This document shows positions 18,328 through 45,602 of a DNA stretch of 64,000 bases, one piece after another. This stretch comes from Escherichia phage vB_EcoM_ESCO9: sequence record OM386654.1. One strand, given 5' to 3'. A model generated the notes under the pieces. That model searched no databases. It was not told where the DNA came from and saw nothing but the letters and a program-made list of their open reading frames with translations. The translations under genes were made by a program, and so were the position numbers. Position 1 is the stretch's first letter, and every line of letters starts with the position of its first letter.

Positions 18328-19455
18328 TTAAAACACACTTGCCAAAGTTGCACCATTGGTGATAGTTGGTTCCAGAACAATACGGAAAGAATCTTCTGGA
18401 TCATCACTAAACACAACGATTTTACCGCCTGTGATAAGATCTGCTTTCATTTTTGTCGCATTCAATGGAATTCGAGCATCGCCTTCATCATCAAAAACCA
18501 CGTAAGAGCTATTAGCAAGGGCTTCTTTAGAATCTGCATCACTTGGAGATGACAAGTACACGTCTAGTGTGCACGAGCCACCTAAAAAGATTGCAGGTGT
18601 AAAGTTATGCCAACTAGATACCCAGCTAACTTTCTGAAGTTTCCCATTAATAACAACACTGCTGATATCCCATTTATTACCACCACCTAAAGAAACGCCC
18701 ATCATAGAGATGCATTCTTTAAAGGATAAATCAGGGTAGAAATTAAGTTCTTCTACTATACCTTGGATCACATCAAAGGACAACTCTAAACTTACATCCC
18801 AAAGTCTTTGGAAATTATCAAAGTGTGCTTTGTTATCCAGGTTTTTATCTAAATAGTCAATCATAGTTTCTAGTGAGATTTTATCATAATTAAAATTATA
18901 AAACACACGACTAGGACGATTTAAAAAGAATTCAGAGATAAAACCACTGTTTTTAGTCAGAATAAACAGTTTATTACCACTGCCAGTACCATCTAACAAA
19001 GTGAGAAGTGCTTCTTGATCTTGTTTCTTCTCATACACTTTATCAAACTCGTCAAAAATAATCACTGCTTTGTCTGTGATCTTGCTAATAAGTTCAATGA
19101 AATTAGCATCGCTGTAGGCTTGAGTAACCATAATAGTTGGAATACCTTCTTCTACAAGGTCACGACTAATGAGTTTGGCTAACATAGTTTTACCACTGCC
19201 CTTAGTGCCTGTCAGGAGCAAACCTGTATTTTTACCTTGTGCACTCCGGCGATGGAATGTACGAATAACGTGATTTGCTCGTTTTTCTGTTTCACCATAC
19301 AGAACATCCGGTACACCTGTTAGATTACCACGGCTTAAAAAGTAATTGCCAAGGGGATCACGACTAACAGTATAGAATCCAGGTGGAAGATAGTTAGATT
19401 CCACGCCCATATCTTTATTTACACTTACAATATCACCATAAATCGTGTATTTCAT
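18328..19455 (-). CDS. AAA-family ATPase; paralog of 33435..34595
   Basis: Walker A GTKGSGKT, Walker B IIFDEFDK, LFILTKN...RPSR region. Confidence 0.7.
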   Translation of the reverse strand: MKYTIYGDIVSVNKDMGVESNYLPPGFYTVSRDPLGNYFLSRGNLTGVPDVLYGETEKRANHVIRTFHRRSAQGKNTGLLLTGTKGSGKTMLAKLISRDLVEEGIPTIMVTQAYSDANFIELISKITDKAVIIFDEFDKVYEKKQDQEALLTLLDGTGSGNKLFILTKNSGFISEFFLNRPSRVFYNFNYDKISLETMIDYLDKNLDNKAHFDNFQRLWDVSLELSFDVIQGIVEELNFYPDLSFKECISMMGVSLGGGNKWDISSVVINGKLQKVSWVSSWHNFTPAIFLGGSCTLDVYLSSPSDADSKEALANSSYVVFDDEGDARIPLNATKMKADLITGGKIVVFSDDPEDSFRIVLEPTITNGATLASVF

Positions 19456-19467
19456 TTTAAACCCCTT

Positions 19468-19905
19468 TTATCTTTGTTGAGATGAACGAATTAAATCAGC
19501 AGCAAATTCAATCAGATACACTTTTGGTGCAATAATAATTTTTAGCCAATCGAAATTCGAAAAGAAAATAACAAATCCTAAAAAGAAAAAGAAAGCACAG
19601 ACAACAAGACCAACAATAGGCAAAGCAGATACCTCACCATAGCGATCTCGTGACCACAGACATTCTTTATCTTTAATTGCTTTTATGAGGTTCCGCACAA
19701 CAATAAAAGTAATAAACATAAAGCAAATACTAAAAAGTTGCCATAAACCTGCGGATACTGCTTTCCACATTAATAATTGATGAATTACTTCTGGAATTTG
19801 TTGTTTTCCAAACTCTACAACATCACTCATTGTTTGAATAGTGACGTTAACCATGTTCAGAAGTACATCAGTTGCTTTATCTGCGATTGCGTTTGTTTTA
19901 CTCAT
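19468..19905 (-). CDS. membrane protein
   Basis: 145 aa with hydrophobic helices. Confidence 0.6.
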   Translation of the reverse strand: MSKTNAIADKATDVLLNMVNVTIQTMSDVVEFGKQQIPEVIHQLLMWKAVSAGLWQLFSICFMFITFIVVRNLIKAIKDKECLWSRDRYGEVSALPIVGLVVCAFFFFLGFVIFFSNFDWLKIIIAPKVYLIEFAADLIRSSQQR

Positions 19906-33434: not shown

Positions 33435-34595
33435 ATGTTTACAGTATTCGGCAATCAAATCTTTCTGCGTCAGAAATCTGGTACAGATATTGAAGAAATT
33501 CCAGCAGGAACTTTTGGTGTAGGTGTTACTCAAAGTGGTGAGTTCTTCCTGTATCCTAAAAACGATATGGAAGTCCCTTCAGTAACATACGGTGATACTG
33601 ATGATAAATCAGAACGTATTATCAAAACGTTCCTTAGCCGCAAAGGTAAAAACACAGGTGTTCTCCTTGAAGGTACGAAAGGTAGCGGTAAAACTTTGCA
33701 AGCTAAAATGCTGTCTTCTGCTCTTCGTGAAATGGGTATTCCTACTATTTCTATCGGTAGTGCTTTTAATGGTGAAGGCTTTATCAATTTTATGTCTAAA
33801 ATCACACAACCTGTGATGATTATGATCGATGAATTTGATAAACTGTATGCTGAAAAAGATGCACAAGATGGTTTGCTTACCCTGCTGGATGGTGTTGGTG
33901 GCTACGACAAACTGTTTGTATTGACTAAAAATGATGGTTATGTATCAGAATTTTTGCGTAATCGTCCTAGCCGTATTTTCTACAGTTTTAGCTATAAGAA
34001 ACTACCTAAAGCTACTATGGATGATTATCTGGCTAAAAATCTGGAGAACAAAGCCTTCTTACCAGATTTTGAAACGCTTTATAATCTCTCCGTGGATTTG
34101 AACTTTGATATTGTTCAGTCATTAGTAGAAGAACTTAACCGTTACCCTAATGACAAATTCTCTGATGCACTTGCATTGATGGGTATCAGTATTACTGAAC
34201 ACCGCTATGCTGCAAAAGAGGTTAAACTTCTGAAAGTTAACGGTGTAGATCGTACAGGAGATGTTTCGTCAGATACCGATATTGACGGTATGACAGCACA
34301 AGGTTTGTTTAGCGGTAATCGTTATGTTGTAGCTGTAGACCATAAACTAGGTGAAGAGCATCTTCCTGAAATGGAAGGGATTGTTACCGTAGAAGATAAA
34401 GATGAAGAAGGTGATTACTACTGGGGTGTAGACCGTATCTTGCTAACGTATGATGAAAAACACATTCGTACAATGGGTGGTGACGGCTATCACTTTATGT
34501 TCACCGATGATAAAGGTAACAACATTGAAGTTGTTATTAAAAACAAAGAACGTAAAAACTACACAGAGTATGTGTTTGGTGGTCGTTCTTACTAA
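33435..34595 (+). CDS. AAA-family ATPase; paralog of 18328..19455
   Basis: GTKGSGKT, IMIDEFDK, LFVLTKN...RPSR; roughly half of aligned residues shared with the paralog. Confidence 0.7.
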   Translation: MFTVFGNQIFLRQKSGTDIEEIPAGTFGVGVTQSGEFFLYPKNDMEVPSVTYGDTDDKSERIIKTFLSRKGKNTGVLLEGTKGSGKTLQAKMLSSALREMGIPTISIGSAFNGEGFINFMSKITQPVMIMIDEFDKLYAEKDAQDGLLTLLDGVGGYDKLFVLTKNDGYVSEFLRNRPSRIFYSFSYKKLPKATMDDYLAKNLENKAFLPDFETLYNLSVDLNFDIVQSLVEELNRYPNDKFSDALALMGISITEHRYAAKEVKLLKVNGVDRTGDVSSDTDIDGMTAQGLFSGNRYVVAVDHKLGEEHLPEMEGIVTVEDKDEEGDYYWGVDRILLTYDEKHIRTMGGDGYHFMFTDDKGNNIEVVIKNKERKNYTEYVFGGRSY

Positions 34596-34603
34596 GTGAT
34601 AAA

Positions 34604-34628
34604 AGGAGGCGAAAGCCTCCTTTATTTA
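34604..34628 (+). terminator. intrinsic terminator
   Basis: aggaggc-gaaa-gcctcct then ttatttat (GNRA loop). Confidence 0.6.
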
Positions 34629-34641
34629 TATGGAGGGTATT

Positions 34642-34833
34642 ATGGATCATTATTTTGTTTTTAAAGATAAAGTTGATACCGCAGGTGGTCACGTTGCTAA
34701 AAATGATCGTGACATTAAAGAAGTATTAGGAGATCTGATTAACATTTTAGAACAAAAAGAGTTGCTTTTAGATAAGGATATTGCTAGACTTCTTGGTGTG
34801 GGGATAAGTGACATACAAAGATTACCATTCTAA
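34642..34833 (+). CDS. small hypothetical protein
   Basis: GGAGGG RBS before ATG 34642. Confidence 0.4.
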   Translation: MDHYFVFKDKVDTAGGHVAKNDRDIKEVLGDLINILEQKELLLDKDIARLLGVGISDIQRLPF

Positions 34834-34845
34834 AGGGGGAAGAAA

Positions 34846-34998
34846 ATGCTTACAGATGATGAATATAAAGCTATCCAAGAAAAACTAACGGAGCTTGAAA
34901 TTCTTGCTGTCAATATTAAAGATCAATCACATGCTGGAAAGTTACTACATCAAGAGATCAATAAAATTAAGCAGATGATATTCTTTTGGACGGAGGAT
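34846..34998 (+). CDS. small hypothetical protein (50 aa)
   Basis: ORF below track cutoff; GGGGGAAGAAA RBS. Confidence 0.3.
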
Positions 34999-35003
34999 TA
35001 AAA

Positions 35004-35660
35004 ATGACTGTTAAGCATATTTCTTTTGATGTATGGAATACTCTTATTACTGCTAATCCTTTGTATGCAGAAGAACGCAACAAGGTTATTGCCGAGTATG
35101 CCTCTTGTTCTGAGGCAGAAGCAGCTACTGTTTATAAAGAGGTAAAAACTCTCTTAGATTTAAAAGCAGAAAAAGGCATTTGTGGAACGTCTAAGGATGC
35201 TTGGGTAACACTTTCTACTCGTTTGAACATTGATCTTGACAAAGTGGATGGGTTAAAAAGAGATTGTTTGGCAATGTTTATAAAACATCCTCCAACATTG
35301 AATCCTGAACTTTGCAAGAAGTTGGAAGAGCTAAGTTCAACCTACTCTTTGAGTATTAAGAGCAATACTAATTTTGTACCAGGTAGTTTCTTAGCTGTAT
35401 ATTCTGGTTTAACAAAATTACCATTCGACTTTATGCATTTTTCTGACGAGTTTTGCTTGTGTAAACCAGATCCTAGGTTTTTTAAACTCTCTTTTGATGA
35501 AATGGTGACGTTTGATCTCGCACCAGAGGAGATTTTACACGTTGGAGATAGTTTGATTTATGATGGAAAAGCTGTTGACATAGGGATGAAGTTCTGTCAT
35601 ATTATTAATCCAGAAGACTTGTTGGCTAAACTTAAAAAAGAGGAACTTATTAATGCGTAA
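35004..35660 (+). CDS. HAD-superfamily hydrolase
   Basis: Motif I FDVWNTL, motif II SIKSNTN, motif III KPDPRFF, motif IV HVGDSLIYD. Confidence 0.75.
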   Translation: MTVKHISFDVWNTLITANPLYAEERNKVIAEYASCSEAEAATVYKEVKTLLDLKAEKGICGTSKDAWVTLSTRLNIDLDKVDGLKRDCLAMFIKHPPTLNPELCKKLEELSSTYSLSIKSNTNFVPGSFLAVYSGLTKLPFDFMHFSDEFCLCKPDPRFFKLSFDEMVTFDLAPEEILHVGDSLIYDGKAVDIGMKFCHIINPEDLLAKLKKEELINA

Positions 35661-36510
35661 TCAAATTCAACATTTTGCTAATACTTTTACTAACCTGAAG
35701 GAAGCAAAATTTAACATTGCAGATTATTCCAAACTAAAGTTTGGTAGTAACCAGGCAGCAAAAAGAATGGGGCGCATTCTGGCTGAAAGTTTCTTTTCTA
35801 AGTATGAAGAACGACTGGTAAATGAAAGTTTTGTTGTTATTCCATCTCCATATAACTATGTGAAAAATGCAGCTACAGTGTTATCTGAACATTTTGTAGA
35901 TCACCTCAACTACCTAATCTCTATCAAAGGTGGTAAACCAGTGGAGTGGGATATCGTTCATCGTAAAGTGAGCTATATCAATGATTATGGATTTCTTAGC
36001 AAAGAAGATCGTAAGGCTTTGATCGATGGTGACACTTTCTCTATCAATCGTGATTTCTGGGGTAATAAAACTCTGATTTTCATTGATGATGTTAATATTA
36101 CAGGAACGCACGAAGAAAAACTTATTGAAATTTTAGACAAAGAAGGTGTTGAAAACGATACGTTTTTCCTGTACTTTGCAAAGTATGAAGGTACAGAAGC
36201 CAACACCGAAGCTGCACTTAACTTCAACTATATCAATAACCTGGCAGCTTTTATTAAGATGATTAAGCAAGAAACTGATGCTAAATGTTTGGTTCGTCCT
36301 ATTAAGTATCTAATGAGTCAAAGCGAAGTTGATTTTAAAATTGCACTTTCACAGCTTCCTTTGTATTATGTAGAACAACTGTTCTTTGGTTGCCTTGCAG
36401 AAGGCTACAATAACATTGAAAAATATAAAGAGAACTTTGATTTTCTACGTCAATTTTTTGAAAGCAACATTATCAATAAATCTAATGTTAAAGGGGATTA
36501 TTATGTCTAA
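35653..36510 (+). CDS. phosphoribosyltransferase-like protein (type I PRTase motif)
   Basis: PRPP-binding-like TLIFIDDVNITGTHEE; overlaps HAD gene stop. Confidence 0.55.
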   Translation: MRNQIQHFANTFTNLKEAKFNIADYSKLKFGSNQAAKRMGRILAESFFSKYEERLVNESFVVIPSPYNYVKNAATVLSEHFVDHLNYLISIKGGKPVEWDIVHRKVSYINDYGFLSKEDRKALIDGDTFSINRDFWGNKTLIFIDDVNITGTHEEKLIEILDKEGVENDTFFLYFAKYEGTEANTEAALNFNYINNLAAFIKMIKQETDAKCLVRPIKYLMSQSEVDFKIALSQLPLYYVEQLFFGCLAEGYNNIEKYKENFDFLRQFFESNIINKSNVKGDYYV

Positions 36511-37219
36511 TAAAGTAATGACTTTCGGAGATCCTATCACCAATATTACAGAAAAAGATTTTGGGCGTGTAGCAACAGATAAAGATGGTGTCTTAAGAAT
36601 TCGTGTACAAGGTATTACAGCACAGGATGAATATGCTGTGTATGTTTCAGGTCTTAACTATATTGATGATCGCATTACACAAAACTTTGCACTGATCGGT
36701 GGTGTAGAGAAAATGTACTGGGAAGATGAAATTGTAACAAGTTATCCAGCAGGTATCATTGAGGTATACGGTGATCTTTTAGCAGCAGCCGAGAGAGGCG
36801 ATATAGACGCTATAGCACACTGCTGTAACTGTTTTTGCACTATGGGTAGTGGTATTGCACCAAAAATTAAAAGTAAGTGGCCTGGGGCGTTTAAAGCAGA
36901 CTGTGCCACTAAACGTGGTGATTATAAAAAATTAGGTACGTTTACCAAGTATACAGAAAACAATTTGACAATTTATAATTTATATGGACAATATGGTTAT
37001 AGTCGTCGTGAGGAAGGCAAGCGTGACCTGAATTATGAAGCTATCTATAATGCGTTAGATAGTATGGGAGACGATGTTGTATCTTCAGGCGGTAAAATTG
37101 TAGGTTTACCAATGCTTGGTTGTGGTTTGGCTGGAGGTTCTTGGAATATTGTAAAACTTATGATCGAAGAAACTCTAGTAAACAAAGGTTTAAATGTAAT
37201 TGTTTACAAACTGAAATAA
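36503..37219 (+). CDS. macro-domain protein, TARG1/OARD1-like
   Basis: IDAIAHCCNCFCTMGSGIAPKIK and LPMLGCGLAGGSWNIVKLMIEE...VIVYKL resemble human TARG1 LAHCISEDCRMGAGIA / MPRIGCGLDRLQW; about 95 aa N-terminal extension. Confidence 0.75.
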   Translation: MSNKVMTFGDPITNITEKDFGRVATDKDGVLRIRVQGITAQDEYAVYVSGLNYIDDRITQNFALIGGVEKMYWEDEIVTSYPAGIIEVYGDLLAAAERGDIDAIAHCCNCFCTMGSGIAPKIKSKWPGAFKADCATKRGDYKKLGTFTKYTENNLTIYNLYGQYGYSRREEGKRDLNYEAIYNALDSMGDDVVSSGGKIVGLPMLGCGLAGGSWNIVKLMIEETLVNKGLNVIVYKLK

Positions 37220-37228
37220 GGAGAAAGT

Positions 37229-37435
37229 ATGGCAGGTGTTTTAGCAGTATTAGGTTGTTTTATTGTTGTGTTCTTGATTGTGTTAATCCCTAGTTGGCTA
37301 CTGCTTTTAGCATACAATTATATGATTGACATTATCGGCTTAGACTGGCATCATGTTCCTGTAACGTTTTGGAGTGTAGTCTGTGTGACGTTCATTCTTG
37401 CGGTACTCCGTGGTATCTTTCAATCTAACAAATAA
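37229..37435 (+). CDS. small membrane protein
   Basis: 68 aa, two TM helices; AAGGAG RBS. Confidence 0.5.
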   Translation: MAGVLAVLGCFIVVFLIVLIPSWLLLLAYNYMIDIIGLDWHHVPVTFWSVVCVTFILAVLRGIFQSNK

Positions 37436-37449
37436 GAGAGGATCTTTAT

Positions 37450-37698
37450 ATGCGTAAAGTAAATGTTGAAGTGCTTGAAAAATTTATAAACACCCGTGAT
37501 TGTACTATCGGCAAGGTTTACGAGGCTATTCTCATTGAAGATGGGGATGAAGTTCCTGCCCCGTATCATGCCTTTAACGGTCAGGTTAGCAAAGTGGAAG
37601 GTGGTCTTGCTATTTGCTTTATTGATGATGTAGGTGATGCTGTAGCTTTCCCTATCATTAACAAAGAAGATAAACTTAAAATTACAGAACTGAACTAG
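37450..37698 (+). CDS. hypothetical protein
   Basis: 82 aa; AGAGAGG RBS. Confidence 0.5.
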   Translation: MRKVNVEVLEKFINTRDCTIGKVYEAILIEDGDEVPAPYHAFNGQVSKVEGGLAICFIDDVGDAVAFPIINKEDKLKITELN

Positions 37699-37757
37699 TT
37701 GACTTTCTTTAAAAACAGTTTATAGTATAAGATATAGAGCGGAGGATTGTCCTCCGC
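37699..37757 (+). promoter_or_regulatory. promoter plus leader stem-loop upstream of TerC gene
   Basis: TTGACT, 17-18 nt, TAGTAT, then hairpin gcggagga-ttgt-cctccgc, then AAGAGGAG RBS. Confidence 0.5.
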
Positions 37758-37775
37758 ATTAAAGAGGAGATAAGA

Positions 37776-38753
37776 ATGCAACTGGGTTTCCCAATTATTG
37801 ATGTGGTTGTTTTAGTGGGTATTTTAGTGTTGTCGATTTGTATTGATTTCTTTGGCCACAGAGAAAACAAAGAAATTTCATTTAAATCTGCAATTGGTTG
37901 GTCAATTTTTTGGATTGGGGTATCATTAGCCTACTATGGTTTTGTATACTTCCAGCACGGTGCTGATTTTGCGAGCTTGTTCTTGAGTGGGTATGTGTTG
38001 GAGAAATCTCTTTCTGTAGATAACTTAGTAGTATTTGTGGCAGTATTCGCAAGTTTTGGTATTAAAAGCACACACTTGCAACACAAGATTCTACTTTGGG
38101 GTATTGCAGGTGCGATTGTCTTCCGAGGTGTGTTTGTAGCAGTAGGCACTTACTTGTTGAGTTTGGGTTGGTATGTTAATATCTTCTTCGGTGCTGTCAT
38201 CCTTTTCTGTGCGGCTAAAATGGTATTCGCTGGAGATAATGATGCAGAAGTTGATTACTCTAAACACTGGGCTACTCGCATTGTTCGTAAGCTGTTCCCT
38301 GTATCTGATCAGATGGATGGTGAGAAGTTCTTCACAATCAAAAATGGTGTTCGTGTAGCAACTCCGGCTCTGGTTTGTGTGTTTGTAATGGAAATGGTTG
38401 ACGTAATCTTTGCAGTAGACTCTGTTCCAGCAGTAATTGCAGTGACACAAGAACCTCTGCTGGTGTTCTCTTCGATGCTCTGTGCAATCTTAGGTTTACG
38501 TGCTCTGTTCTTTGTTCTTAGTGTTGCACTGAAGTATTTGGTTCATCTGGAGAAAGCAGTTATCGTAGTCCTGGTATTTGTGGGTGTAAAACTGATGTAT
38601 CATCCGTTTGCAGAAACTCTGCACGCAAAAGTGAGTTTCCTGCCAGCACACATTGATCCGACGATCAGTATGTATATTGTGTTAGGTACTCTTGGGTTGG
38701 GTGTTATTGCAAGTTTAATCTTCCCTGAAAAAGAAGACCAGACTGTTGCTTAA
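37776..38753 (+). CDS. TerC-family integral membrane protein
   Basis: Multi-pass membrane protein with YVLEKSLSVDNLVVF signature. Confidence 0.8.
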   Translation: MQLGFPIIDVVVLVGILVLSICIDFFGHRENKEISFKSAIGWSIFWIGVSLAYYGFVYFQHGADFASLFLSGYVLEKSLSVDNLVVFVAVFASFGIKSTHLQHKILLWGIAGAIVFRGVFVAVGTYLLSLGWYVNIFFGAVILFCAAKMVFAGDNDAEVDYSKHWATRIVRKLFPVSDQMDGEKFFTIKNGVRVATPALVCVFVMEMVDVIFAVDSVPAVIAVTQEPLLVFSSMLCAILGLRALFFVLSVALKYLVHLEKAVIVVLVFVGVKLMYHPFAETLHAKVSFLPAHIDPTISMYIVLGTLGLGVIASLIFPEKEDQTVA

Positions 38754-38759
38754 TTCATT

Positions 38760-38782
38760 AAGCCCCTTCGGGGGCTTTGTTG
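38760..38782 (+). terminator. intrinsic terminator
   Basis: agcccc-ttcg-ggggct then ttgtt (UUCG loop). Confidence 0.6.
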
Positions 38783-38792
38783 AGGTGATCTG

Positions 38793-38999
38793 ATGGTAGT
38801 TTTACGTGTTCTTTGGATTCTGTTTGAAAATATTTGTTTTGCTTTAGGGTTATTTTGTTTGATTTTTATCTTGACAACATACATTGATAACCATACAATT
38901 ACTATCAACAGGAACGGAGAACAGATGTATTGTTTCTCTAGGGATTTTAAAAATTGTGTTGAGACTTTAAATGAGAGGGTTACAAATGAAAAACATTAA
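38793..38999 (+). CDS. small membrane protein
   Basis: 68 aa hydrophobic N-terminus. Confidence 0.4.
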   Translation: MVVLRVLWILFENICFALGLFCLIFILTTYIDNHTITINRNGEQMYCFSRDFKNCVETLNERVTNEKH

Positions 39000-39576
39000 A
39001 TCTTTTATTGTTGCAGTTGTTTTAGGTAGTGCATTGCTGGTAGGTTGTGATGATTCTGAAAATGTACAAAATCAACGTTACCAACAAACACCAAATCAGA
39101 TGGTAGATGAACAATATGTAAATCAGCCTGCACCTCAAGTTGTTCAAGCAGCACCTGCACAACCTTCAACAGTTGTTGTGCAAGGAGGCGGCAGTGGTTC
39201 TTCTGGTGTAGGTGAGTTTGCTACAGGTATGCTTCTTGGTCATATGTTGAGTGGTAATAGTGGCGGTGGTGGTTATAGAGATGGTGGTAGCAGCACAACA
39301 ATTATTAATAACAACGCTGCTCCTACAACTAACAGTAAAGCATATACAACACAAAAGCATAGTTTTTATGATAAACAAGGAAATACATATACAACCACTA
39401 AACAAAACACAATTAAGCAGCAAAGTGTACAAACGTATTCACGCCCATCAACAACAAAAGTGAATAGTGATTACTCTGCTCGTAAGTCTTACTCAAGCCC
39501 TATTAGCTCTTATAGTAAGTCTTCGAAAAGTTATTCTTCGTCGAAACGTAGTTTTAGTAGCTCACGTCGTCGTTAA
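38986..39576 (+). CDS. lipoprotein with Gly-rich and Ser/Tyr/Lys-rich low-complexity regions
   Basis: Signal peptide with lipobox LLVGC; GGGSGSSGVG...GNSGGGG; C-terminal SYSKSSKSYSSSKRSFSSSRRR. Confidence 0.6.
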   Translation: MKNIKSFIVAVVLGSALLVGCDDSENVQNQRYQQTPNQMVDEQYVNQPAPQVVQAAPAQPSTVVVQGGGSGSSGVGEFATGMLLGHMLSGNSGGGGYRDGGSSTTIINNNAAPTTNSKAYTTQKHSFYDKQGNTYTTTKQNTIKQQSVQTYSRPSTTKVNSDYSARKSYSSPISSYSKSSKSYSSSKRSFSSSRRR

Positions 39577-39611
39577 TAATTTAATACAGATTAAATAAGA
39601 AGGAGAAACAG

Positions 39612-40463
39612 ATGAAACTAGAAGTTGGTAAAGTATATCGCCTGGAAGGTTGGATCTTTAATCAAGAAATCCTTGAGAAGAATAAAGATGGTTTTGAGTT
39701 TGTTGGTACTACCAAGGAAAGTATGCACGATGACGAATACTGTAAATTCGTTGGTAAAAATACAGGTCAAGAACAATTTTGCTTTAAGAGCGCAATCGGG
39801 GACTATGCTTCTGTAATGCCAACACCAGAAAAGACTTCGAAGCAATATACTGTCTTTGGTGTAAAACTTGAAGAACTTGTAGAACACCCACGTTTTGAAG
39901 AGTTCAAGGTTGCTGCAATGCGCAAGCATTCTGAAATTAAAATACATAATTTGTTTGATTTAGAAGATCGGTTTGATATCTTTATGTATGATCGCAGGGA
40001 AAAGCATTTTGATGCAACGACTTCAAAATTTGCTGCAACAGAGGATATTAAAATCCTTGATGTTGATACCTTTCTTGAGAGTGTATCGTTTGTATTCATT
40101 CCTAAATACAAAAAACGTAGTGATCATAAACGTGTGAAAGGAACTCCTCGTAAGAAACGTACTGTAAACAAAGCAACTTTGCACTTCACTTCTGGTGATA
40201 AATATACTCTCAAAGGGTTTGAAAGTGTTTTATATGATGCTGGAACAGGTAATATCAAGTTTATCATTAAGGCAACCTACAAAGGTACGGTATTGCACGA
40301 AGAGGCTGTTACACTACCTGTATTCGATATCTCTCGTGTTGAGGTACGGGGTGTTAAAGAGTCCTTCGATCTGGATTTCTTAACTACTAATGCTACTGGT
40401 TATGTTAATCTGGAAGCAGATGGAGCATTTATTACTACAAATTATTTAGATATGTTTGTTTAA
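39612..40463 (+). CDS. hypothetical protein
   Basis: 283 aa; AAGGAG RBS. Confidence 0.6.
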   Translation: MKLEVGKVYRLEGWIFNQEILEKNKDGFEFVGTTKESMHDDEYCKFVGKNTGQEQFCFKSAIGDYASVMPTPEKTSKQYTVFGVKLEELVEHPRFEEFKVAAMRKHSEIKIHNLFDLEDRFDIFMYDRREKHFDATTSKFAATEDIKILDVDTFLESVSFVFIPKYKKRSDHKRVKGTPRKKRTVNKATLHFTSGDKYTLKGFESVLYDAGTGNIKFIIKATYKGTVLHEEAVTLPVFDISRVEVRGVKESFDLDFLTTNATGYVNLEADGAFITTNYLDMFV

Positions 40464-40531
40464 TACTTAATTTGTGTTATGATGGTGGTACAGAGGTATC
40501 ACCATCTACTAAAGAATATGGAGGAAATTGA

Positions 40532-41635
40532 ATGTCCAGTCCTTTTATCAGTGCCGTAAAAAGCAAACCGTCTGAAATGAGTGTATTCACGGCAACAACA
40601 GAAAAAAGTAAGTCTTTGTTTGCTCCAAGTGCTATGGATGCAAGCCCTGTATATGCCCCTGCTGTTGCACGACCTGTACAAATGCTGCCTCCAATGTCTC
40701 GTGAAGAGATTGAACAGGTTGGTGCTGATGCAGGACTTACTCTTCGTAACCTTAATGCTGAAGTGCTTAAACACCAGCGTTCATCTCAGGGAGATGAAAT
40801 GAGTGAACGTTTAACTGCACTTATTAAGCAAGCAAAGCAACTTGATCCTAACTCTATTAAACAATCTAAAGGCTTAGGTAAACTAGTTAAGAAAGTATTA
40901 GGTATGAAAGAAGATTTGTTTGGTGAATTTGACACCATCAATAATCGTATTGAAGGTTTGGTAAAGACACTACAAACAGACTTGAAAAAAGAAGAAGATT
41001 CTTTACGATATCTGCAACGTTTAGAAGAGGCTATTGCAAAATATGCTCTTAGCTTAAACAGGGATATAGAGCTTCTAACAGCTACTTATGAAAAAGAAGA
41101 AGTTCGCCTTAATACACTACCTGAAAATGAAGTAGAAGAGCGTCAACGTACTCGTGACACTATGGATCTGCTTGAAATTCGTATTGCAGATCTGAAAGCC
41201 TTACGTTTACTGTGCGTTCAGATGGGGCCACGTGTACAAAGTATGCAGAAAGTATCTGCAAGTTTGATGCGATCAGCCCGTAATATTGTGAATAATGTTA
41301 TTCCTGCTTACTCTGCAAACTTTTCTATGTATATTGAAAGTCTACGCCAGAAGAAAGCAGCCGATACGCAGAACAATGTACTGAATGAATTTAATGCTGC
41401 TATTGCAATGGGTAGTGATCTGGCTGCACAAAACCAGATTGAAGCTACACAACTTGCTAATCGTCAAGTATTGGATATTGAAACATTGCGTCGTGATCAA
41501 GAAAACTTAGTTAAAATGTTGGAAGAAACTAACCGAATCAACACTGAAGCCCGTGCTGCTCGTATTGATTACATTCAAGAAGTGCAATCTCTTGAAGATG
41601 GTATGATTCAAACTGTTAAACGTGGTCTACTTTAA
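40532..41635 (+). CDS. TelA-like (toxic anion resistance) protein candidate
   Basis: 367 aa, largely helical/coiled-coil; size and LDPNSIKQSKGLGKL region fit my recollection of TelA. Confidence 0.45.
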   Translation: MSSPFISAVKSKPSEMSVFTATTEKSKSLFAPSAMDASPVYAPAVARPVQMLPPMSREEIEQVGADAGLTLRNLNAEVLKHQRSSQGDEMSERLTALIKQAKQLDPNSIKQSKGLGKLVKKVLGMKEDLFGEFDTINNRIEGLVKTLQTDLKKEEDSLRYLQRLEEAIAKYALSLNRDIELLTATYEKEEVRLNTLPENEVEERQRTRDTMDLLEIRIADLKALRLLCVQMGPRVQSMQKVSASLMRSARNIVNNVIPAYSANFSMYIESLRQKKAADTQNNVLNEFNAAIAMGSDLAAQNQIEATQLANRQVLDIETLRRDQENLVKMLEETNRINTEARAARIDYIQEVQSLEDGMIQTVKRGLL

Positions 41636-41648
41636 GGAGAAATATATT

Positions 41649-41855
41649 ATGAATATTAAAATTTACAAACTGTCTGGTTCTATGATTGCTGTTCAGTATG
41701 ACAATGAAGATCGTTATGTTCTCCTCCAGGATGCTTGGTTAGATGATCCTAATGTATTCACTGTCCTGCGAGAACTACGTTCTGTCTATACCTATTCTTC
41801 TAAAGATGGTTTTGACAATTCAACGATGGAATTGGTAAAAGAGGAGAATGTGTAA
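41649..41855 (+). CDS. hypothetical protein
   Basis: Start moved to ATG 41649 with AAGGAG RBS. Confidence 0.5.
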   Translation: MNIKIYKLSGSMIAVQYDNEDRYVLLQDAWLDDPNVFTVLRELRSVYTYSSKDGFDNSTMELVKEENV

Positions 41856-42055
41856 TGAGTAAAGATATTCACTTAACTCGTGAAGAATTGCAAACCATTA
41901 TGGAAGATGCTTTCATTGATGGTTGGAAACAAGGTCAAGAATCAGATTGGTATGATGCCGAAGATTTTTTGTATTATCATATGACTGCACCTGTAGACGA
42001 GCAAACACACTCTGAAACAACTTTGGCTTTAATTGATCTTAAGGCTGGTGTATAA
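41855..42055 (+). CDS. hypothetical protein
   Basis: 66 aa; shares EL..I...AF..GWK.G motif with C-terminus of next ORF. Confidence 0.5.
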   Translation: MSKDIHLTREELQTIMEDAFIDGWKQGQESDWYDAEDFLYYHMTAPVDEQTHSETTLALIDLKAGV

Positions 42056-42618
42056 TGGGGTGTTTTAGTTTCTTGTGCAAAGAGTCTGGTAATGCTGCTC
42101 TTTCTACCTCTTTCGATGGCTCTCCTTGCTACCTATTTCTTTTGAAAGGTGGTAAGGTTGTCGAAGAGATGTATGGGAATTATGATAGCTATGGTAGTGT
42201 TTTCTCTAACGAAGAAGATAAACATGGCAATCGTAAAAGATTTAAGTGGTCTATGCCTTGGGAAGAAGTTTGTAATTTGATGTTCTCTTCCGATCTTGGA
42301 GATGGGATTGCTCTAGTATTAGAAGAGCACTTTACAGGCGAGATCCCAACAGAAAGATCTGAAGAAGACCCTAACCAGGGTTGGGGTGATGGGGAAGAAG
42401 ATCCAGATTGCTTCTTCAGCACTGAAAATAATAAATTTAAACGTGTTGACAATCCTTACCACAAAGTGCATAATACTTGCATTGAGACAGAAGAAGACTC
42501 AAAGCTAGAAATTGAAGATGATTTAGTTGTAACTATCTCTTTAAACGAGTTGCAAAAAATCACTAGAGAGGCTTTCTATTTAGGTTGGAAAGTAGGTAAA
42601 GGAGGAGATAGTGCTTAA
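42055..42618 (+). CDS. hypothetical acidic protein
   Basis: 187 aa. Confidence 0.55.
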   Translation: MGCFSFLCKESGNAALSTSFDGSPCYLFLLKGGKVVEEMYGNYDSYGSVFSNEEDKHGNRKRFKWSMPWEEVCNLMFSSDLGDGIALVLEEHFTGEIPTERSEEDPNQGWGDGEEDPDCFFSTENNKFKRVDNPYHKVHNTCIETEEDSKLEIEDDLVVTISLNELQKITREAFYLGWKVGKGGDSA

Positions 42619-42880
42619 ATTTAATATCAAAGACGACAAATCAGATGAACCTAAATGTTTTGGAGAACTTGACGTAGGTGATACATTTGTATATTATGTT
42701 GCCTATCAAGATTCTGGTTTAGATACATTCAGAAATTTAGTGTTTATTAAGGTTAATACAAACCAAGCAATGTGTCTGAACGGTTCGCAAAGAGGTCAAC
42801 TTAGCTGTATTTCGTATGATACAGAAATGGTAGAAGTGGATTTAGAAGTTACTAACATTACACTCAGAAAGGAGAAATAA
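42611..42880 (+). CDS. hypothetical protein
   Basis: 89 aa; GTG start after AAAGGAGGAG. Confidence 0.5.
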   Translation: MLKFNIKDDKSDEPKCFGELDVGDTFVYYVAYQDSGLDTFRNLVFIKVNTNQAMCLNGSQRGQLSCISYDTEMVEVDLEVTNITLRKEK

Positions 42881-42881
42881 T

Positions 42882-43676
42882 ATGTCCAATAAAATCAGTC
42901 TTAAAAAACGTCAAGAAACTCTTACCGTATCTCTGCGTAAGAAAAAGATTAACGATGTTGTTCTTCGTGTCGGTAGTGCCTTAGATATTTCGGGTAGTAT
43001 GTGTGAGCTGTATCGTGATGGCACTGTTAGTGATTTTGTAGGTAAACTGCTGCCGTTTGGTATGAAGTTTGATGATAATGCACAGATTGACATGTGGGCT
43101 TTCAATAGTTCTTCTTTTGAACTGCCTCCTGCAACGGCTGATGTATATGATGATTATGTCGGCTCTTGTATGTCTAATGTTTGCATCAATGGTGGTACAG
43201 CTTATGCCCCAGTAATGCAAGAGATCTATGATACATACTTCGGTAGTGTACCTATGAAAAATATTACACGCGAAGTCGTTGAGTATGAAGAAGTTCCGGC
43301 TAAGGGTTTCCTTGCTAAACTAACTGGTAAAAAAGAACGTGTAGAAGTTACACGTACTGTTGTAGAACAGGTTGTAGATACTGATGCACAAGTTGATCGT
43401 ACTCCTGCAATGATTTTCTTCCAAACTGACGGGGAGAACATGGATACTTCAGCAGTACGTAGTTTGCTGAACAAACACCGCAACACTCCTGTTTACTGGT
43501 TTATGGTTGGTGTAGGCAATGCAAACTTTAAATTCCTGAAAGACTTGGCAAAAGAATACGATAATGTTGATTTTATCGGTATTGCAGATTTGTCCTTGTC
43601 TGACGAAGAACTTTACGATAAACTGCTATCCGAAGAGTTTGGTGAGTGGGTTAAAAAATTTGGAGCAAAAGCGTAA
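42882..43676 (+). CDS. vWA-domain protein, TerY-like
   Basis: MIDAS-like motifs DISGSM, GGTAYAPV, FFQTDGENMD; N-terminus ISLKK...VSL resembles TerD N-termini. Confidence 0.65.
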   Translation: MSNKISLKKRQETLTVSLRKKKINDVVLRVGSALDISGSMCELYRDGTVSDFVGKLLPFGMKFDDNAQIDMWAFNSSSFELPPATADVYDDYVGSCMSNVCINGGTAYAPVMQEIYDTYFGSVPMKNITREVVEYEEVPAKGFLAKLTGKKERVEVTRTVVEQVVDTDAQVDRTPAMIFFQTDGENMDTSAVRSLLNKHRNTPVYWFMVGVGNANFKFLKDLAKEYDNVDFIGIADLSLSDEELYDKLLSEEFGEWVKKFGAKA

Positions 43677-43683
43677 AAAACGC

Positions 43684-43711
43684 TTGACTTTGTAGAAAAG
43701 ATTAGTAAAAT
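43684..43711 (+). promoter_or_regulatory. sigma70-type promoter upstream of TerD gene
   Basis: TTGACT, 16 nt, TAAAAT. Confidence 0.55.
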
Positions 43712-43748
43712 AGACAACGTAAATTAACAACAAAGGAGATAATAAATT

Positions 43749-44345
43749 ATGACTCAGAAAATTTCCCTGAAAAAAGGTTCTAGCGAAAAAGTTTCTCTGA
43801 AAAAGATTGCACCAGCACTGAAACGCATTCGTCTGGAATTCTCTTGGAAATCTAACGAAAAACTGGATCTGGATGTTAGTGCTCTGATTTGCCGACACAA
43901 TGCATCTGGTCTGCCGGAACTGTTGTCTCCTCGCCACCTGGTGTGCTACGCGCAGAAATTTGATCCTGAACGTTCTACTTTTGCAGGTGAAGATGTTCGT
44001 GATGGTGTAGGACAGATGGAGCAGATTGATGTTACACTGGATAATATCTCTGCTGAAGCACAGGAAATTGCATTCGTAATTACTATTGATGACGAAACGG
44101 GTAAGAAACGCCTTGGTCACGCTACCGAAGGTTTCCTTAAAATCTTCGATGATGAACGTAATGTTGAACTGCTGGATTTTGACTTCTTGGCTCCAGAACT
44201 TGCAGGTAATACCATTTGCCACGTTGCCTCCCTGGTGCGGGAAGATAGCGAATGGAAACTGAAAGCATATGGTGTAGGTAAAGCTGGACTTGACATTTAT
44301 GATGTAGTTAAAGCGTTTGGCGCTGGCGACGATTGGTTCGAGTAA
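43749..44345 (+). CDS. TerD-domain protein
   Basis: ISLKKG..VSLKK, DLDVSAL, IAFVITIDD, SEWKLKAYGVG align with E. coli TerD. Confidence 0.85.
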   Translation: MTQKISLKKGSSEKVSLKKIAPALKRIRLEFSWKSNEKLDLDVSALICRHNASGLPELLSPRHLVCYAQKFDPERSTFAGEDVRDGVGQMEQIDVTLDNISAEAQEIAFVITIDDETGKKRLGHATEGFLKIFDDERNVELLDFDFLAPELAGNTICHVASLVREDSEWKLKAYGVGKAGLDIYDVVKAFGAGDDWFE

Positions 44346-44353
44346 TAAATCAT

Positions 44354-44377
44354 AGCGCCCTTCGGGGCGCATATTTT
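44354..44377 (+). terminator. intrinsic terminator
   Basis: gcgccc-ttcg-gggcgc then atatttt. Confidence 0.6.
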
Positions 44378-44397
44378 AAATAGAAGAGGAGAAAACA

Positions 44398-45000
44398 ATG
44401 GGTATTACTTTAGAAGGTCAAAAACTTATTCGTAGCGGTAATTTTCTTGTGGATATTGACAACAATGAAGATTATGCTTTAGAAGTTAGTGATGTACTGT
44501 TTAATGCTTTGCAGTCTGGTTTCAATTTTGAAGTTTATGAAGTAATCCGTGGAACTAAACTCAGAGATACCCTTGGATCAACTAGTGATGTTTATTCGGC
44601 AATCTGGCAATATTTCGGGTTAATGGATGGTAAGACATACCTTACTGATAGTTATTCTGAAGATGTTGTTTATCTTGATATGGAAGAGTTTCGTCGTCTG
44701 TTCAAAAATGAAGAAAATGAAGAAGAGGGTGAACTTTTTGAAGGAATTACTCTCGAAGGTAATGTTGAAATTGTGTATAAAGCAGGAAAAACATTCCACT
44801 TGCGCGAAAACGGTAAAGCAAAAGTTGATTTTGTAAACAAGACAGTAACAACTGAACATAATTATCTTAAAGATGGTCAACCAGCTTTTGAACGTGTAAC
44901 AATTAAATTTAAAGTATTGTCTGCACTAATTACGGATCAAGAACGTATTGATTTTGTAGAAGATGGTGTAGTAACTCATACGAAGGTCTACAACATCTAA
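44398..45000 (+). CDS. hypothetical protein
   Basis: 200 aa; AGAGGAG RBS. Confidence 0.6.
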   Translation: MGITLEGQKLIRSGNFLVDIDNNEDYALEVSDVLFNALQSGFNFEVYEVIRGTKLRDTLGSTSDVYSAIWQYFGLMDGKTYLTDSYSEDVVYLDMEEFRRLFKNEENEEEGELFEGITLEGNVEIVYKAGKTFHLRENGKAKVDFVNKTVTTEHNYLKDGQPAFERVTIKFKVLSALITDQERIDFVEDGVVTHTKVYNI

Positions 45001-45092: not shown

Positions 45093-45602
45093 TTGTCAAT
45101 AAAAACCTTTGTCGCAATTGCGTTACTATCCTTAACTGCTTTTACATTTACACCTGTCGTGGCGCAAGCCGAAGCTGCAAACGTAAAAACTGCTAAAGTA
45201 GTTCACAAGTGTACAAAGCGTGATAGTAAAGAAAATCTATTAGCTTGTGCAATCTATGCAGAAAGTCGTAATCAAGGAAAGCGCGGTATGTCTGCTGTTG
45301 GTAATGTAGTATTAAATAGGGCTAGAGATTCATATTTCCCTGATACTATAAAAGAAGTTTTGTTTCAAAAAGGACAATTCTCTTACACAAAGACATTCAA
45401 CGTTATGGAACGTGATAAGTGGAAGGAAGCTAAGGCTATAGCAGAACGTCTGCTTTATCTCGATACGCATTTTCCAGAATTACGAATTGCATTAGATATT
45501 ACAAAAGGAGCATTATACTTTAAAAAATCTACAATAAGAGCACACTGGGAAAAAGATATGGTTCTAGTGTACCGCTACAAAGAACATCAATTCTATCGCT
45601 AA
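45093..45602 (+). CDS. secreted cell-wall hydrolase, SleB-like (candidate endolysin)
   Basis: Signal peptide; LLACAIYAESRNQGKRGMSAVGNVVLNRARDSYFPDTI; TTG start after GGAGG. Confidence 0.65.
   Translation: MSIKTFVAIALLSLTAFTFTPVVAQAEAANVKTAKVVHKCTKRDSKENLLACAIYAESRNQGKRGMSAVGNVVLNRARDSYFPDTIKEVLFQKGQFSYTKTFNVMERDKWKEAKAIAERLLYLDTHFPELRIALDITKGALYFKKSTIRAHWEKDMVLVYRYKEHQFYR

Follow-up and report, generated by a model that had tools for sequence, protein, structure and literature searches.

Many bacteria, plasmids and phages carry Ter systems, which have been tied for decades to tellurite, colicin and phage resistance. An account and interpretation of phage Ter systems with a phosphoribosyltransferase (PRTase) and a HAD hydrolase was given by Iyer et al. 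2021 (PMC7824862), who listed the same four functional classes as occur in the locus studied here, mentioned smaller tailed phages and proposed that phage Ter systems act in competition with superinfecting phages or in superinfection exclusion. For phi92 and vKMB37, 'alx-like ter cluster genes' have been remarked upon (PMC11162368), and terC, terF-vWA, terD and telA are on record as a cluster in a Klebsiella phage (PMC8386662). Here we analysed a 64,000-nucleotide stretch, referred to as the window, of Escherichia phage vB_EcoM_ESCO9 (OM386654.1), in which positions 34986–44380 encode a HAD hydrolase, a PRTase_3 protein, a macrodomain protein and four Ter-family proteins. The three upstream genes are already labelled as putative HAD, phosphoribosyltransferase and macrodomain in the GenBank records of BASEL phages; as both the cluster and the way in which it is read have been published before, little is added as discovery. 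What is gained by the re-analysis is that the HAD-PRTase pair, the Ter membrane genes and the macrodomain are to be treated as separate units. In the explanation that we favour, at a probability of roughly 55% for the whole, these are three separable units juxtaposed in a block that is core to, and vertically inherited in, the phi92-like (Stephanstirmvirinae) coliphages, and not one pathway.

Alignment of 34986–44380 revealed 98.7% identity, over the full length, to Escherichia phage Paula and 98.0–98.6% identity to the other listed Justusliebigvirus records; judged by this identity the window belongs to Justusliebigvirus and is another isolate of the phi92-like lineage. The genes of the cluster map 1:1 onto phi92 gp187–gp172 (via the Paula annotation). 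Seven families were found on one strand (+) within 9.4 kb, and the gene set, coordinates, strand and proximity to nrdDG given in an earlier note, which was made from the sequence alone, were all reproduced. Profile hidden Markov models from Pfam recovered each of the seven:

35004..35660, + strand: HAD-superfamily hydrolase, the partner of the PRTase (Pfam Hydrolase, borderline at 26.3 bits against a gathering score of 26.4)

35653..36510, + strand: PRTase_3, a ComF-like type I phosphoribosyltransferase (PF15610, 143 bits, 1.5e-41)

36503..37219, + strand: macrodomain of the TARG1/SCO6735/BT1257 class, homologue of T4 Tk.4 (AdfM) (Macro PF01661, residues 106–217, 31.3 bits against a gathering score of 22, 2.1e-7)

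37776..38753, + strand: TerC/Alx-family integral membrane protein, of a divalent-cation exporter family (PF03741, 133 bits, 1.2e-38)

40532..41635, + strand: TelA-family protein (PF05816, 118.3 bits, 5.1e-34)

42882..43676, + strand: vWA protein of the TerF C-terminal type with an intact metal ion-dependent adhesion site (MIDAS; DISGS...T...D) (vWA-TerF-like PF10138, 134.5 bits, 7.2e-39)

43749..44345, + strand: TerD-domain protein (PF02342, 98.2 bits against a gathering score of 25.3, 5.1e-28)

The cluster is preceded by nrdD, nrdG and an AAA-ATPase gene and followed by genes for a cell-wall hydrolase, glycosyltransferases, a primase/helicase and a DNA polymerase. G+C content was even throughout the region, so that there is no sign of recent acquisition. 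When tblastn matches were limited to the high-identity bands, the PRTase, TerC, TelA, vWA and TerD genes were each present in 131–132 phage records and the primase/helicase, a core replication gene, in 133. By these counts all five genes occur in 131–132 of the approximately 133 Stephanstirmvirinae records and, since the counts nearly equal that of the primase/helicase, the block is essentially universal in this subfamily. The earlier note had called such a set unusual in a virulent phage, a view that neither this distribution nor the published descriptions uphold. Gene order was identical in phi92 and Paula (98–99% nucleotide identity, no substantive difference from the window) and was kept in phAPEC8 (Phapecoctavirus), where the proteins are 65–81% identical; this synteny agrees with a core block, and an equivalent block was found in every sequenced Justusliebigvirus and Phapecoctavirus. 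Separately, five GenBank records labelled 'Campylobacter phage' (MG0656xx; Campylobacter jejuni) were 98–100% identical to this coliphage group over the cluster, and their host label is likely a mis-assignment or contamination.

The HAD and PRTase reading frames overlap by 8 nucleotides. The AlphaFold2 model of the PRTase (mean confidence score, pLDDT, 92) gave Foldseek matches at probability 1.0 to HGPRT, to ComF of H. pylori (7p0h) and to PyrR, and the loop that binds phosphoribosyl pyrophosphate (PRPP), DDVxITG[TA]HE, was invariant in the alignments (DDVxITGTHE in the window); the type I fold and the PRPP loop anticipated for 35653..36510 are thus both present. An extra C-terminal helical domain of ~100 amino acids follows. 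An attempt to deduce the PRTase substrate from structure was dropped, as Foldseek returned the generic type I fold only. The HAD matched the NCBIfam models HAD-IA, dehalogenase-type II and REG-2-like, and alignment showed unambiguous homology to the HADs of other PRTase_3 loci. Its motif I reads FDVWNTL: the Asp nucleophile is kept and the general acid at Asp+2 is replaced by Trp. This Trp (SFD[VLF]W.TL) was invariant in 14/14 homologues from phages, Rhizobiaceae and Bacteroidota, and a motif I of the form DxDx[TV] with the Asp+2 general acid was not present in any of the 14 aligned (D-V-W-N-T). Motifs II (S120), III (K154) and IV (GD182xxxxD187) were intact and invariant, and the catalytic residues of both PRTase and HAD were invariant over ~30–65% sequence divergence. 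Because Trp is invariant at Asp+2 while motifs II–IV are intact, the alignments suggest a HAD that is under selection but for which conventional phosphomonoesterase activity is doubtful, that is, one with non-standard HAD chemistry.

Linkage was screened in 24 further PRTase_3 loci, eight of them from phages or metagenomic phages and 16 from bacterial genome assemblies. The HAD lay directly 5′ of the PRTase, overlapping or abutting it, in 23/24; the exception was a metagenomic phage (L009) in which one gene is inserted between the two. The conserved arrangement marks HAD-PRTase as a fixed two-gene cassette with predicted translational coupling. In phages as a whole, ~156 records contained the PRTase (tblastn).

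Several of these loci placed the pair among Ter genes. One metagenomic phage (L007) encoded TelA, vWA, TerC, HAD, PRTase and TerD within 9 kb; in L009 the order was TerC, vWA, TerD, TerD, TelA, endolysin, HAD, PRTase; and in a third (L008) vWA, TerD and TerD were found with HAD-PRTase 8 kb further on. On a contig (L028, 1993–13486) of a Tannerella metagenome-assembled genome (MAG), HAD-PRTase_3 was surrounded by three TerD genes, three VWA genes, of which one includes TerY_C, and genes for a PP2C phosphatase, a protein kinase and a P-type cation ATPase. The locus is a textbook example of the bacterial Ter/TerY-P type, and the presence of the pair within it confirms the link of PRTase and HAD to bacterial Ter systems that had been drawn for the window. 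A second Bacteroidota contig (L029) carried two TerD genes, OmpA-like proteins, HAD, PRTase and TerC, and the HAD of the window was homologous to those paired with PRTase_3 in both Bacteroidota loci. As the same families are found together again, with their order changed, in several phage and bacterial lineages independent of one another, the clustering of Ter, PRTase and HAD genes is beyond chance.

Three further observations were made at these loci. The Tannerella locus ends with HAD, PRTase_3 and the P-type pump (Cation_ATPase_N/C), which points to divalent-cation flux as a part of the system. In XaC1-like jumbo phages (L003, 14941–16527; L006, 10967–12562) a DUF2828/DUF7788 protein of ~530 amino acids is encoded directly 3′ of HAD-PRTase, with no Ter gene there. 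Finally, L007, which is a divergent metagenomic phage, encodes an Acb2/Tad1-hairpin protein (19368–19592) of the anti-CBASS/Thoeris sponge family ~9 kb downstream of its tight Ter and PRTase cluster.

The Pfam results for TerC, TelA and TerD agree with their first identification. TerC was also recovered by NCBIfam TIGR03718 (Alx subfamily) at 322.8 bits against a curated cut-off of 246.4 and contains the signature motifs EKSLSVDN and DVIFAVDSVPA. TerD matched the Klebsiella TerD structure (PDB 2kxt) at E = 8.6e-15; its acidic loop reads GED-VRDGVGQME against the Ca2+-binding GDNxTGxGxGDDE, with the DxDxS motif kept. The vWA protein had been called TerY-like with a TerD-like N-terminus, and neither description held. 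PF10138 places it in the TerF type, its score against the generic VWA model PF00092 (21.4) fell below the gathering score of 23.8, and Pfam matched no TerY_C, PP2C or kinase, all of which occur in the Tannerella locus. The resemblance to TerD came down to a 20-residue motif, MxxKISLKK..VSLxK (BLASTP E = 0.086). In any open reading frame (ORF) from 33435 to 45000 there was likewise no Pfam match to TerB, to ATP-grasp or to the triad of TerY, PP2C and kinase. TerC of some Phapecoctavirus phages (Mt1B1_P17, tuntematon, SKA64) was 95% identical to that of the window and that of others 71%, whereas the PRTase, TelA and vWA of Phapecoctavirus were uniformly 65–79% identical; this apparent mosaic suggests that the two genera have exchanged terC by recombination.

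The third unit is the macrodomain protein, whose reading frame overlaps that of the PRTase by 8 nucleotides. Its PDB matches (5e3b, 2fg1, 4j5q and 5m31), with the class match in the C-terminal 150 residues, together with Pfam Macro support its description as TARG1-like. DarG was its top match in NCBIfam and in PADLOC, and it was the sole match to the PADLOC defence-system models, the PRTase, HAD and Ter proteins being unmatched. T4 tk.4 encodes AdfM, a macrodomain that T4 needs for resistance to DarTG2 (bioRxiv 10.1101/2025.11.20.689424). BLASTP aligned a Tequatrovirus Tk.4 with the window protein at E = 1e-15 and 28% identity, and a gene of phage JSE annotated as tk.4 was 34.7% identical to it. 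Both Tk.4 and the window protein have BT1257 and SCO6735 as their best structural relatives. Compared with an approximate TARG1 sequence, the window protein has Gln at the catalytic K84 and Ala at D125. Tk.4 and the window protein share Y-x-Q in place of the catalytic Lys of TARG1 and DarG, and since Tk.4 has the same substitution, it argues against DarG-type chemistry but not against membership of the AdfM family. Unlike Tk.4, the window protein has an additional N-terminal extension of ~85 amino acids (36503–36760 (+)), to which no domain was assigned, and its gene overlaps the PRTase gene.

The distribution of the macrodomain differed from that of the pair. By tblastn, 2,972 phage records contain it, among them those of T-even, rV5-like, FelixO1-like, Pseudomonas and Vibrio phages; 69 of the records, mostly Justusliebigvirus, cover the N-terminal extension. 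In phAPEC8 the protein is a plain domain of 157 amino acids that lacks the extension and does not overlap the PRTase. The macrodomain adjoined the PRTase only in Stephanstirmvirinae (the window, L002 and L015), lay ~8 kb off in XaC1-like phages and was absent from the other screened neighbourhoods. An overlapping HAD-PRTase-macrodomain operon had been proposed for the window; its 8-nucleotide overlaps are real, but the three genes are not one conserved unit. From these comparisons the macrodomain is better supported as an independent anti-DarT2 counter-defence gene, separate from the Ter metabolite pathway.

The identities of the proteins, the conservation of their catalytic motifs and the linkage patterns are read directly from sequences and alignments; all of the biochemistry and every phenotype that follow are what we infer from them. 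The PRTase would draw on PRPP to couple ribose-5-phosphate to an acceptor; its product would then be handled by the atypical HAD, which probably takes off the phosphate, and the outcome would be the 'nucleoside-like' metabolite that bacterial Ter systems have been postulated to make. The Ter membrane module would consist of the Alx-type TerC cation exporter, TelA, the TerF-type vWA protein, TerD, two small membrane proteins and a lipoprotein, and would be transcribed in part from host-type promoters. Within it, TerD and the MIDAS vWA protein would be the ligand- or metal-binding parts, TelA would lie beneath the membrane and TerC would be the cation-transporting membrane part. Most likely the module reconditions the inner membrane and the divalent-cation balance of the infected cell, with the benefit that superinfecting phages or colicins are kept out or that the envelope stays intact until lysis; the HAD-PRTase metabolite may be its ligand. 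The mechanism proposed for the enzymes and Ter proteins follows the published Ter model (PMC7824862). The macrodomain, independently of the other units, most likely strips DarT2-type ADP-ribose from phage DNA.

A number of points weigh against this explanation. The pair stood alone in 11 distinct Rhizobiaceae loci (12 were fetched, pRL10 twice), adjoining repA on pRL10, and in jumbo phages of Caulobacter, Rhizobium and Xanthomonas the Ter-family genes lay 27–165 kb from it; its link to Ter genes is, because of both, frequent and not obligatory. With a HAD that lacks the Asp+2 general acid, simple phosphatase chemistry is not assured, and the acidic Ca2+-binding loop of TerD appears partly degenerate relative to Klebsiella TerD. 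Promoter-like matches were not enriched over shuffled sequences (38 against 30.8 +/- 5.5). The macrodomain is only 28–35% identical to Tk.4, is without the catalytic Lys of TARG1/DarG and has an extra N-terminal domain, and in this genus its 8-nucleotide overlap couples it translationally to the PRTase, so that a functional tie is possible. Moreover, the function of the phi92-like ter cluster has been called unknown in the literature (PMC11162368).

The solitary Rhizobiaceae pairs, on chromosomes and plasmids, would suit an alternative in which HAD-PRTase is an autonomous cassette for nucleotide metabolism or counter-defence, serving for example as a PRPP sink or a base-analogue detoxifier and merely co-resident with Ter proteins. 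No conserved third gene was found beside HAD-PRTase across the 11 loci, a Clp-protease-like neighbour being common only to close Ensifer relatives; the scatter of the pair relative to Ter genes in jumbo phages and its position in a nucleotide-metabolism region of the window fit the same idea. It is nevertheless unlikely, as the pair lies beside TerD, TerC, TelA or vWA in at least six independent lineages with differing gene orders, and every phage group that has the pair has at least one Ter-family gene somewhere in its genome. PF15610 itself is a family defined from Ter neighbourhoods. No more probable is that TerC(Alx), TerD, TelA and vWA mainly tune Mn2+/Ca2+ or membrane metalation for phage enzymes or lysis timing, with no exclusion of competitors. 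The Alx-subfamily score of TerC (322.8 bits), the P-type cation ATPase beside the Tannerella pair, and the position of the cluster between nrdDG and a signal-peptide endolysin just downstream all accord with a metal role, as do the Mn2+ export and metal homeostasis ascribed to TerC/Alx proteins in the literature (for example PMC10197570 and PMC12096827). Such a role leaves the HAD-PRTase partner unexplained, however; Rfam found no riboswitch or other metal-sensing element in the TerC leader, the TerD Ca2+ loop appears degenerate, and ter operons on plasmids inhibit phages and make cells resistant to colicins according to work cited in PMC8386662.

The earlier note had favoured an integrated model, in which HAD, PRTase and macrodomain act in a single pathway for the synthesis or breakdown of a small molecule derived from ADP-ribose or a nucleotide, to which the Ter proteins respond or which they transport. 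Macrodomains bind ribose-phosphate and ADP-ribose ligands, which would fit such a pathway, and the two 8-nucleotide overlaps in the window, the position of the macrodomain directly 3′ of the PRTase in phAPEC8 too and the presence, in XaC1-like phages, of a separate macrodomain gene ~8 kb away from the pair speak for it. We nonetheless consider it improbable. Gene overlaps are the norm in phage genomes, and the phAPEC8 macrodomain, in its plain 157-residue form, does not overlap the PRTase. No macrodomain was found within 10 kb of the pair in loci L004, L005, L007–L009 and L016–L030, the macrodomain family has a spread among phages ~20 times that of the PRTase, and a family member, AdfM, has a demonstrated and unrelated role. 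From the small-molecule and counter-defence interpretation of that note, the Ter link of PRTase and HAD was retained, while for the macrodomain a place in the same pathway gave way to the better supported separate counter-defence gene. Equally improbable in our view is a bolder scheme in which HAD-PRTase_3 would be an autonomous mobile synthase of a small ribosylated signal, made by the non-canonical chemistry of the Trp-HAD and used with the phage's own TerC, TelA, vWA and TerD to set up an 'already alarmed' membrane that excludes rival phages and colicins, while the N-extended, coupled macrodomain would edit or recycle the ribosyl metabolite. The reading of three juxtaposed, separable units is retained as the favoured one.

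Between the seven main genes the block encodes further proteins, some of them assigned above to the Ter membrane module:

37229..37435, + strand: small membrane protein of 68 amino acids with two hydrophobic segments in its translation; homologue in phAPEC8

38793..38999, + strand: small membrane protein of 68 amino acids; weak DUF6693 match, conserved in phAPEC8

38986..39576, + strand: predicted lipoprotein, lipobox LLVG-C with Asp at +2 in its translation (start 38971 or 38986, the latter being the Paula start); phrog_21570

39612..40463, + strand: ORFan of 283 amino acids, found in Justusliebigvirus only (2 homologue clusters)

42055..42618, + strand: small phage protein of 187 amino acids (MGCFSF...DPNQGWG) from a widespread, strongly conserved family (294 homologue clusters)

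The lipoprotein noted earlier after TerC was confirmed by the LLVGC lipobox followed by D; its body is of low complexity and rich in G/S/Q, its tail is basic, and it is conserved in phAPEC8. Only the last ~70 amino acids of the 283-residue protein resemble phAPEC8 gp055. Its candidacy as a conserved Ter partner was rejected, as it gave 17–23% identity and no credible alignment to the 290–330-residue proteins without assignment that are encoded beside TerD/TelA in other phages. The 200-residue protein at 44398–45000 has no counterpart in phAPEC8. Both had been put forward as additional components, and no Ter linkage was seen for either. Members of the 187-residue family occur in unrelated phage contexts and no fold relative was detected; within the cluster the protein is a passenger that has no relation to it. 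The phAPEC8 block has other unrelated genes interleaved, among them one for a SprT-like protease. The cluster is thus a conserved framework whose filling varies.

At the flanks, an AAA-ATPase gene (33435–34595 (+), Pfam AAA 1.2e-6) separates nrdG from the cluster in Justusliebigvirus, a position that in phAPEC8 is taken by a 201-residue protein without a Pfam match. A Hydrolase_2 (SleB-like) endolysin gene is found directly 3′ of the Ter block both in the window (45093–45602, with signal peptide) and in phAPEC8 (L002, 23535–24056). An endolysin of the same family adjoins TelA in an unrelated metagenomic phage (L009, 6940–7431), and in XaC1-like phages a lysozyme gene lies ~3 kb away from HAD-PRTase. 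This proximity may reflect a link to lysis control, or coincidence.

Four candidate regulatory elements were located in the region:

34602..34623, + strand: terminator-like hairpin 3′ of the AAA-ATPase gene, 9-bp stem and T-rich tail; Paula has terminators annotated at the equivalent site

37699..37757, + strand: sigma-70-like promoter TTGACT-16-TATAGT (37699–37726) followed by the hairpin GCGGAGGAttgTCCTCCGC (37739–37757, 8-bp), before the TerC ribosome-binding site and ATG

43684..43711, + strand: sigma-70-like promoter TTGACT-16-TAAAAT 5′ of TerD, by sequence match

44355..44370, no strand assigned: GC-rich hairpin GCGCCCTTCGGGGCGC, terminator-like on both strands by its sequence, closing the TerD unit

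The hairpin at 34602..34623 is probably the upstream boundary of the HAD-PRTase-macrodomain transcription unit. The promoter motifs described earlier for TerC and TerD and the leader hairpin of TerC are present, and in phAPEC8 a host-type promoter is annotated at the same position before TerC; in view of the lack of enrichment over shuffled sequences, the two promoters are plausible and not established. A riboswitch before TerC was ruled out, as the Rfam search gave no hit either at the gathering threshold or with the limit relaxed to E <= 5.

The phi92-like coliphages infect E. coli K-12, are represented in the BASEL collection and carry the compact Ter block as a core feature of their subfamily; for these reasons they are a tractable system for the PRTase/HAD metabolite and for the membrane roles of TerC, TerD, TelA and vWA. 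The macrodomain reading yields one concrete prediction, namely that the protein counters DarTG2.

Comparison with described systems places the block as follows. With bacterial Ter stress and defence loci (terZABCDEF with terWXY; the TerY-P triad; Anantharaman, Iyer and Aravind 2012) it shares TerC, TerD, vWA and the HAD-PRTase_3 pair. Relative to these loci, the phage block is without TerB, the TerA/Z/E/F paralogue series, TerY_C, PP2C, kinase and ATP-grasp, has only one TerD, whose Ca2+ loop appears degenerate, and includes TelA inside the same block. With E. coli Alx and the TerC proteins of the Bacillus YkoY type its TerC shares the Alx subfamily, in which it is placed by a score above the curated cut-off; its leader has no yybP-ykoY Mn2+ riboswitch but a simple promoter and an 8-bp hairpin. 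The phage Ter systems of the kind described by Iyer et al. are built from the same parts, namely PRTase, HAD, TerD, TerC, TelA and a TerF-type vWA protein. Among the phages that these authors named, the Caulobacter PRTase was 38–39% identical to that of the window and the ME3 vWA protein was homologous. In CcrColossus the pair lies 27 kb from TerD, whereas in the window all of these genes are contained in one 9-kb co-directional block of a 146-kb coliphage; as a further difference, this block also includes an AdfM-type macrodomain gene and unrelated passenger genes.

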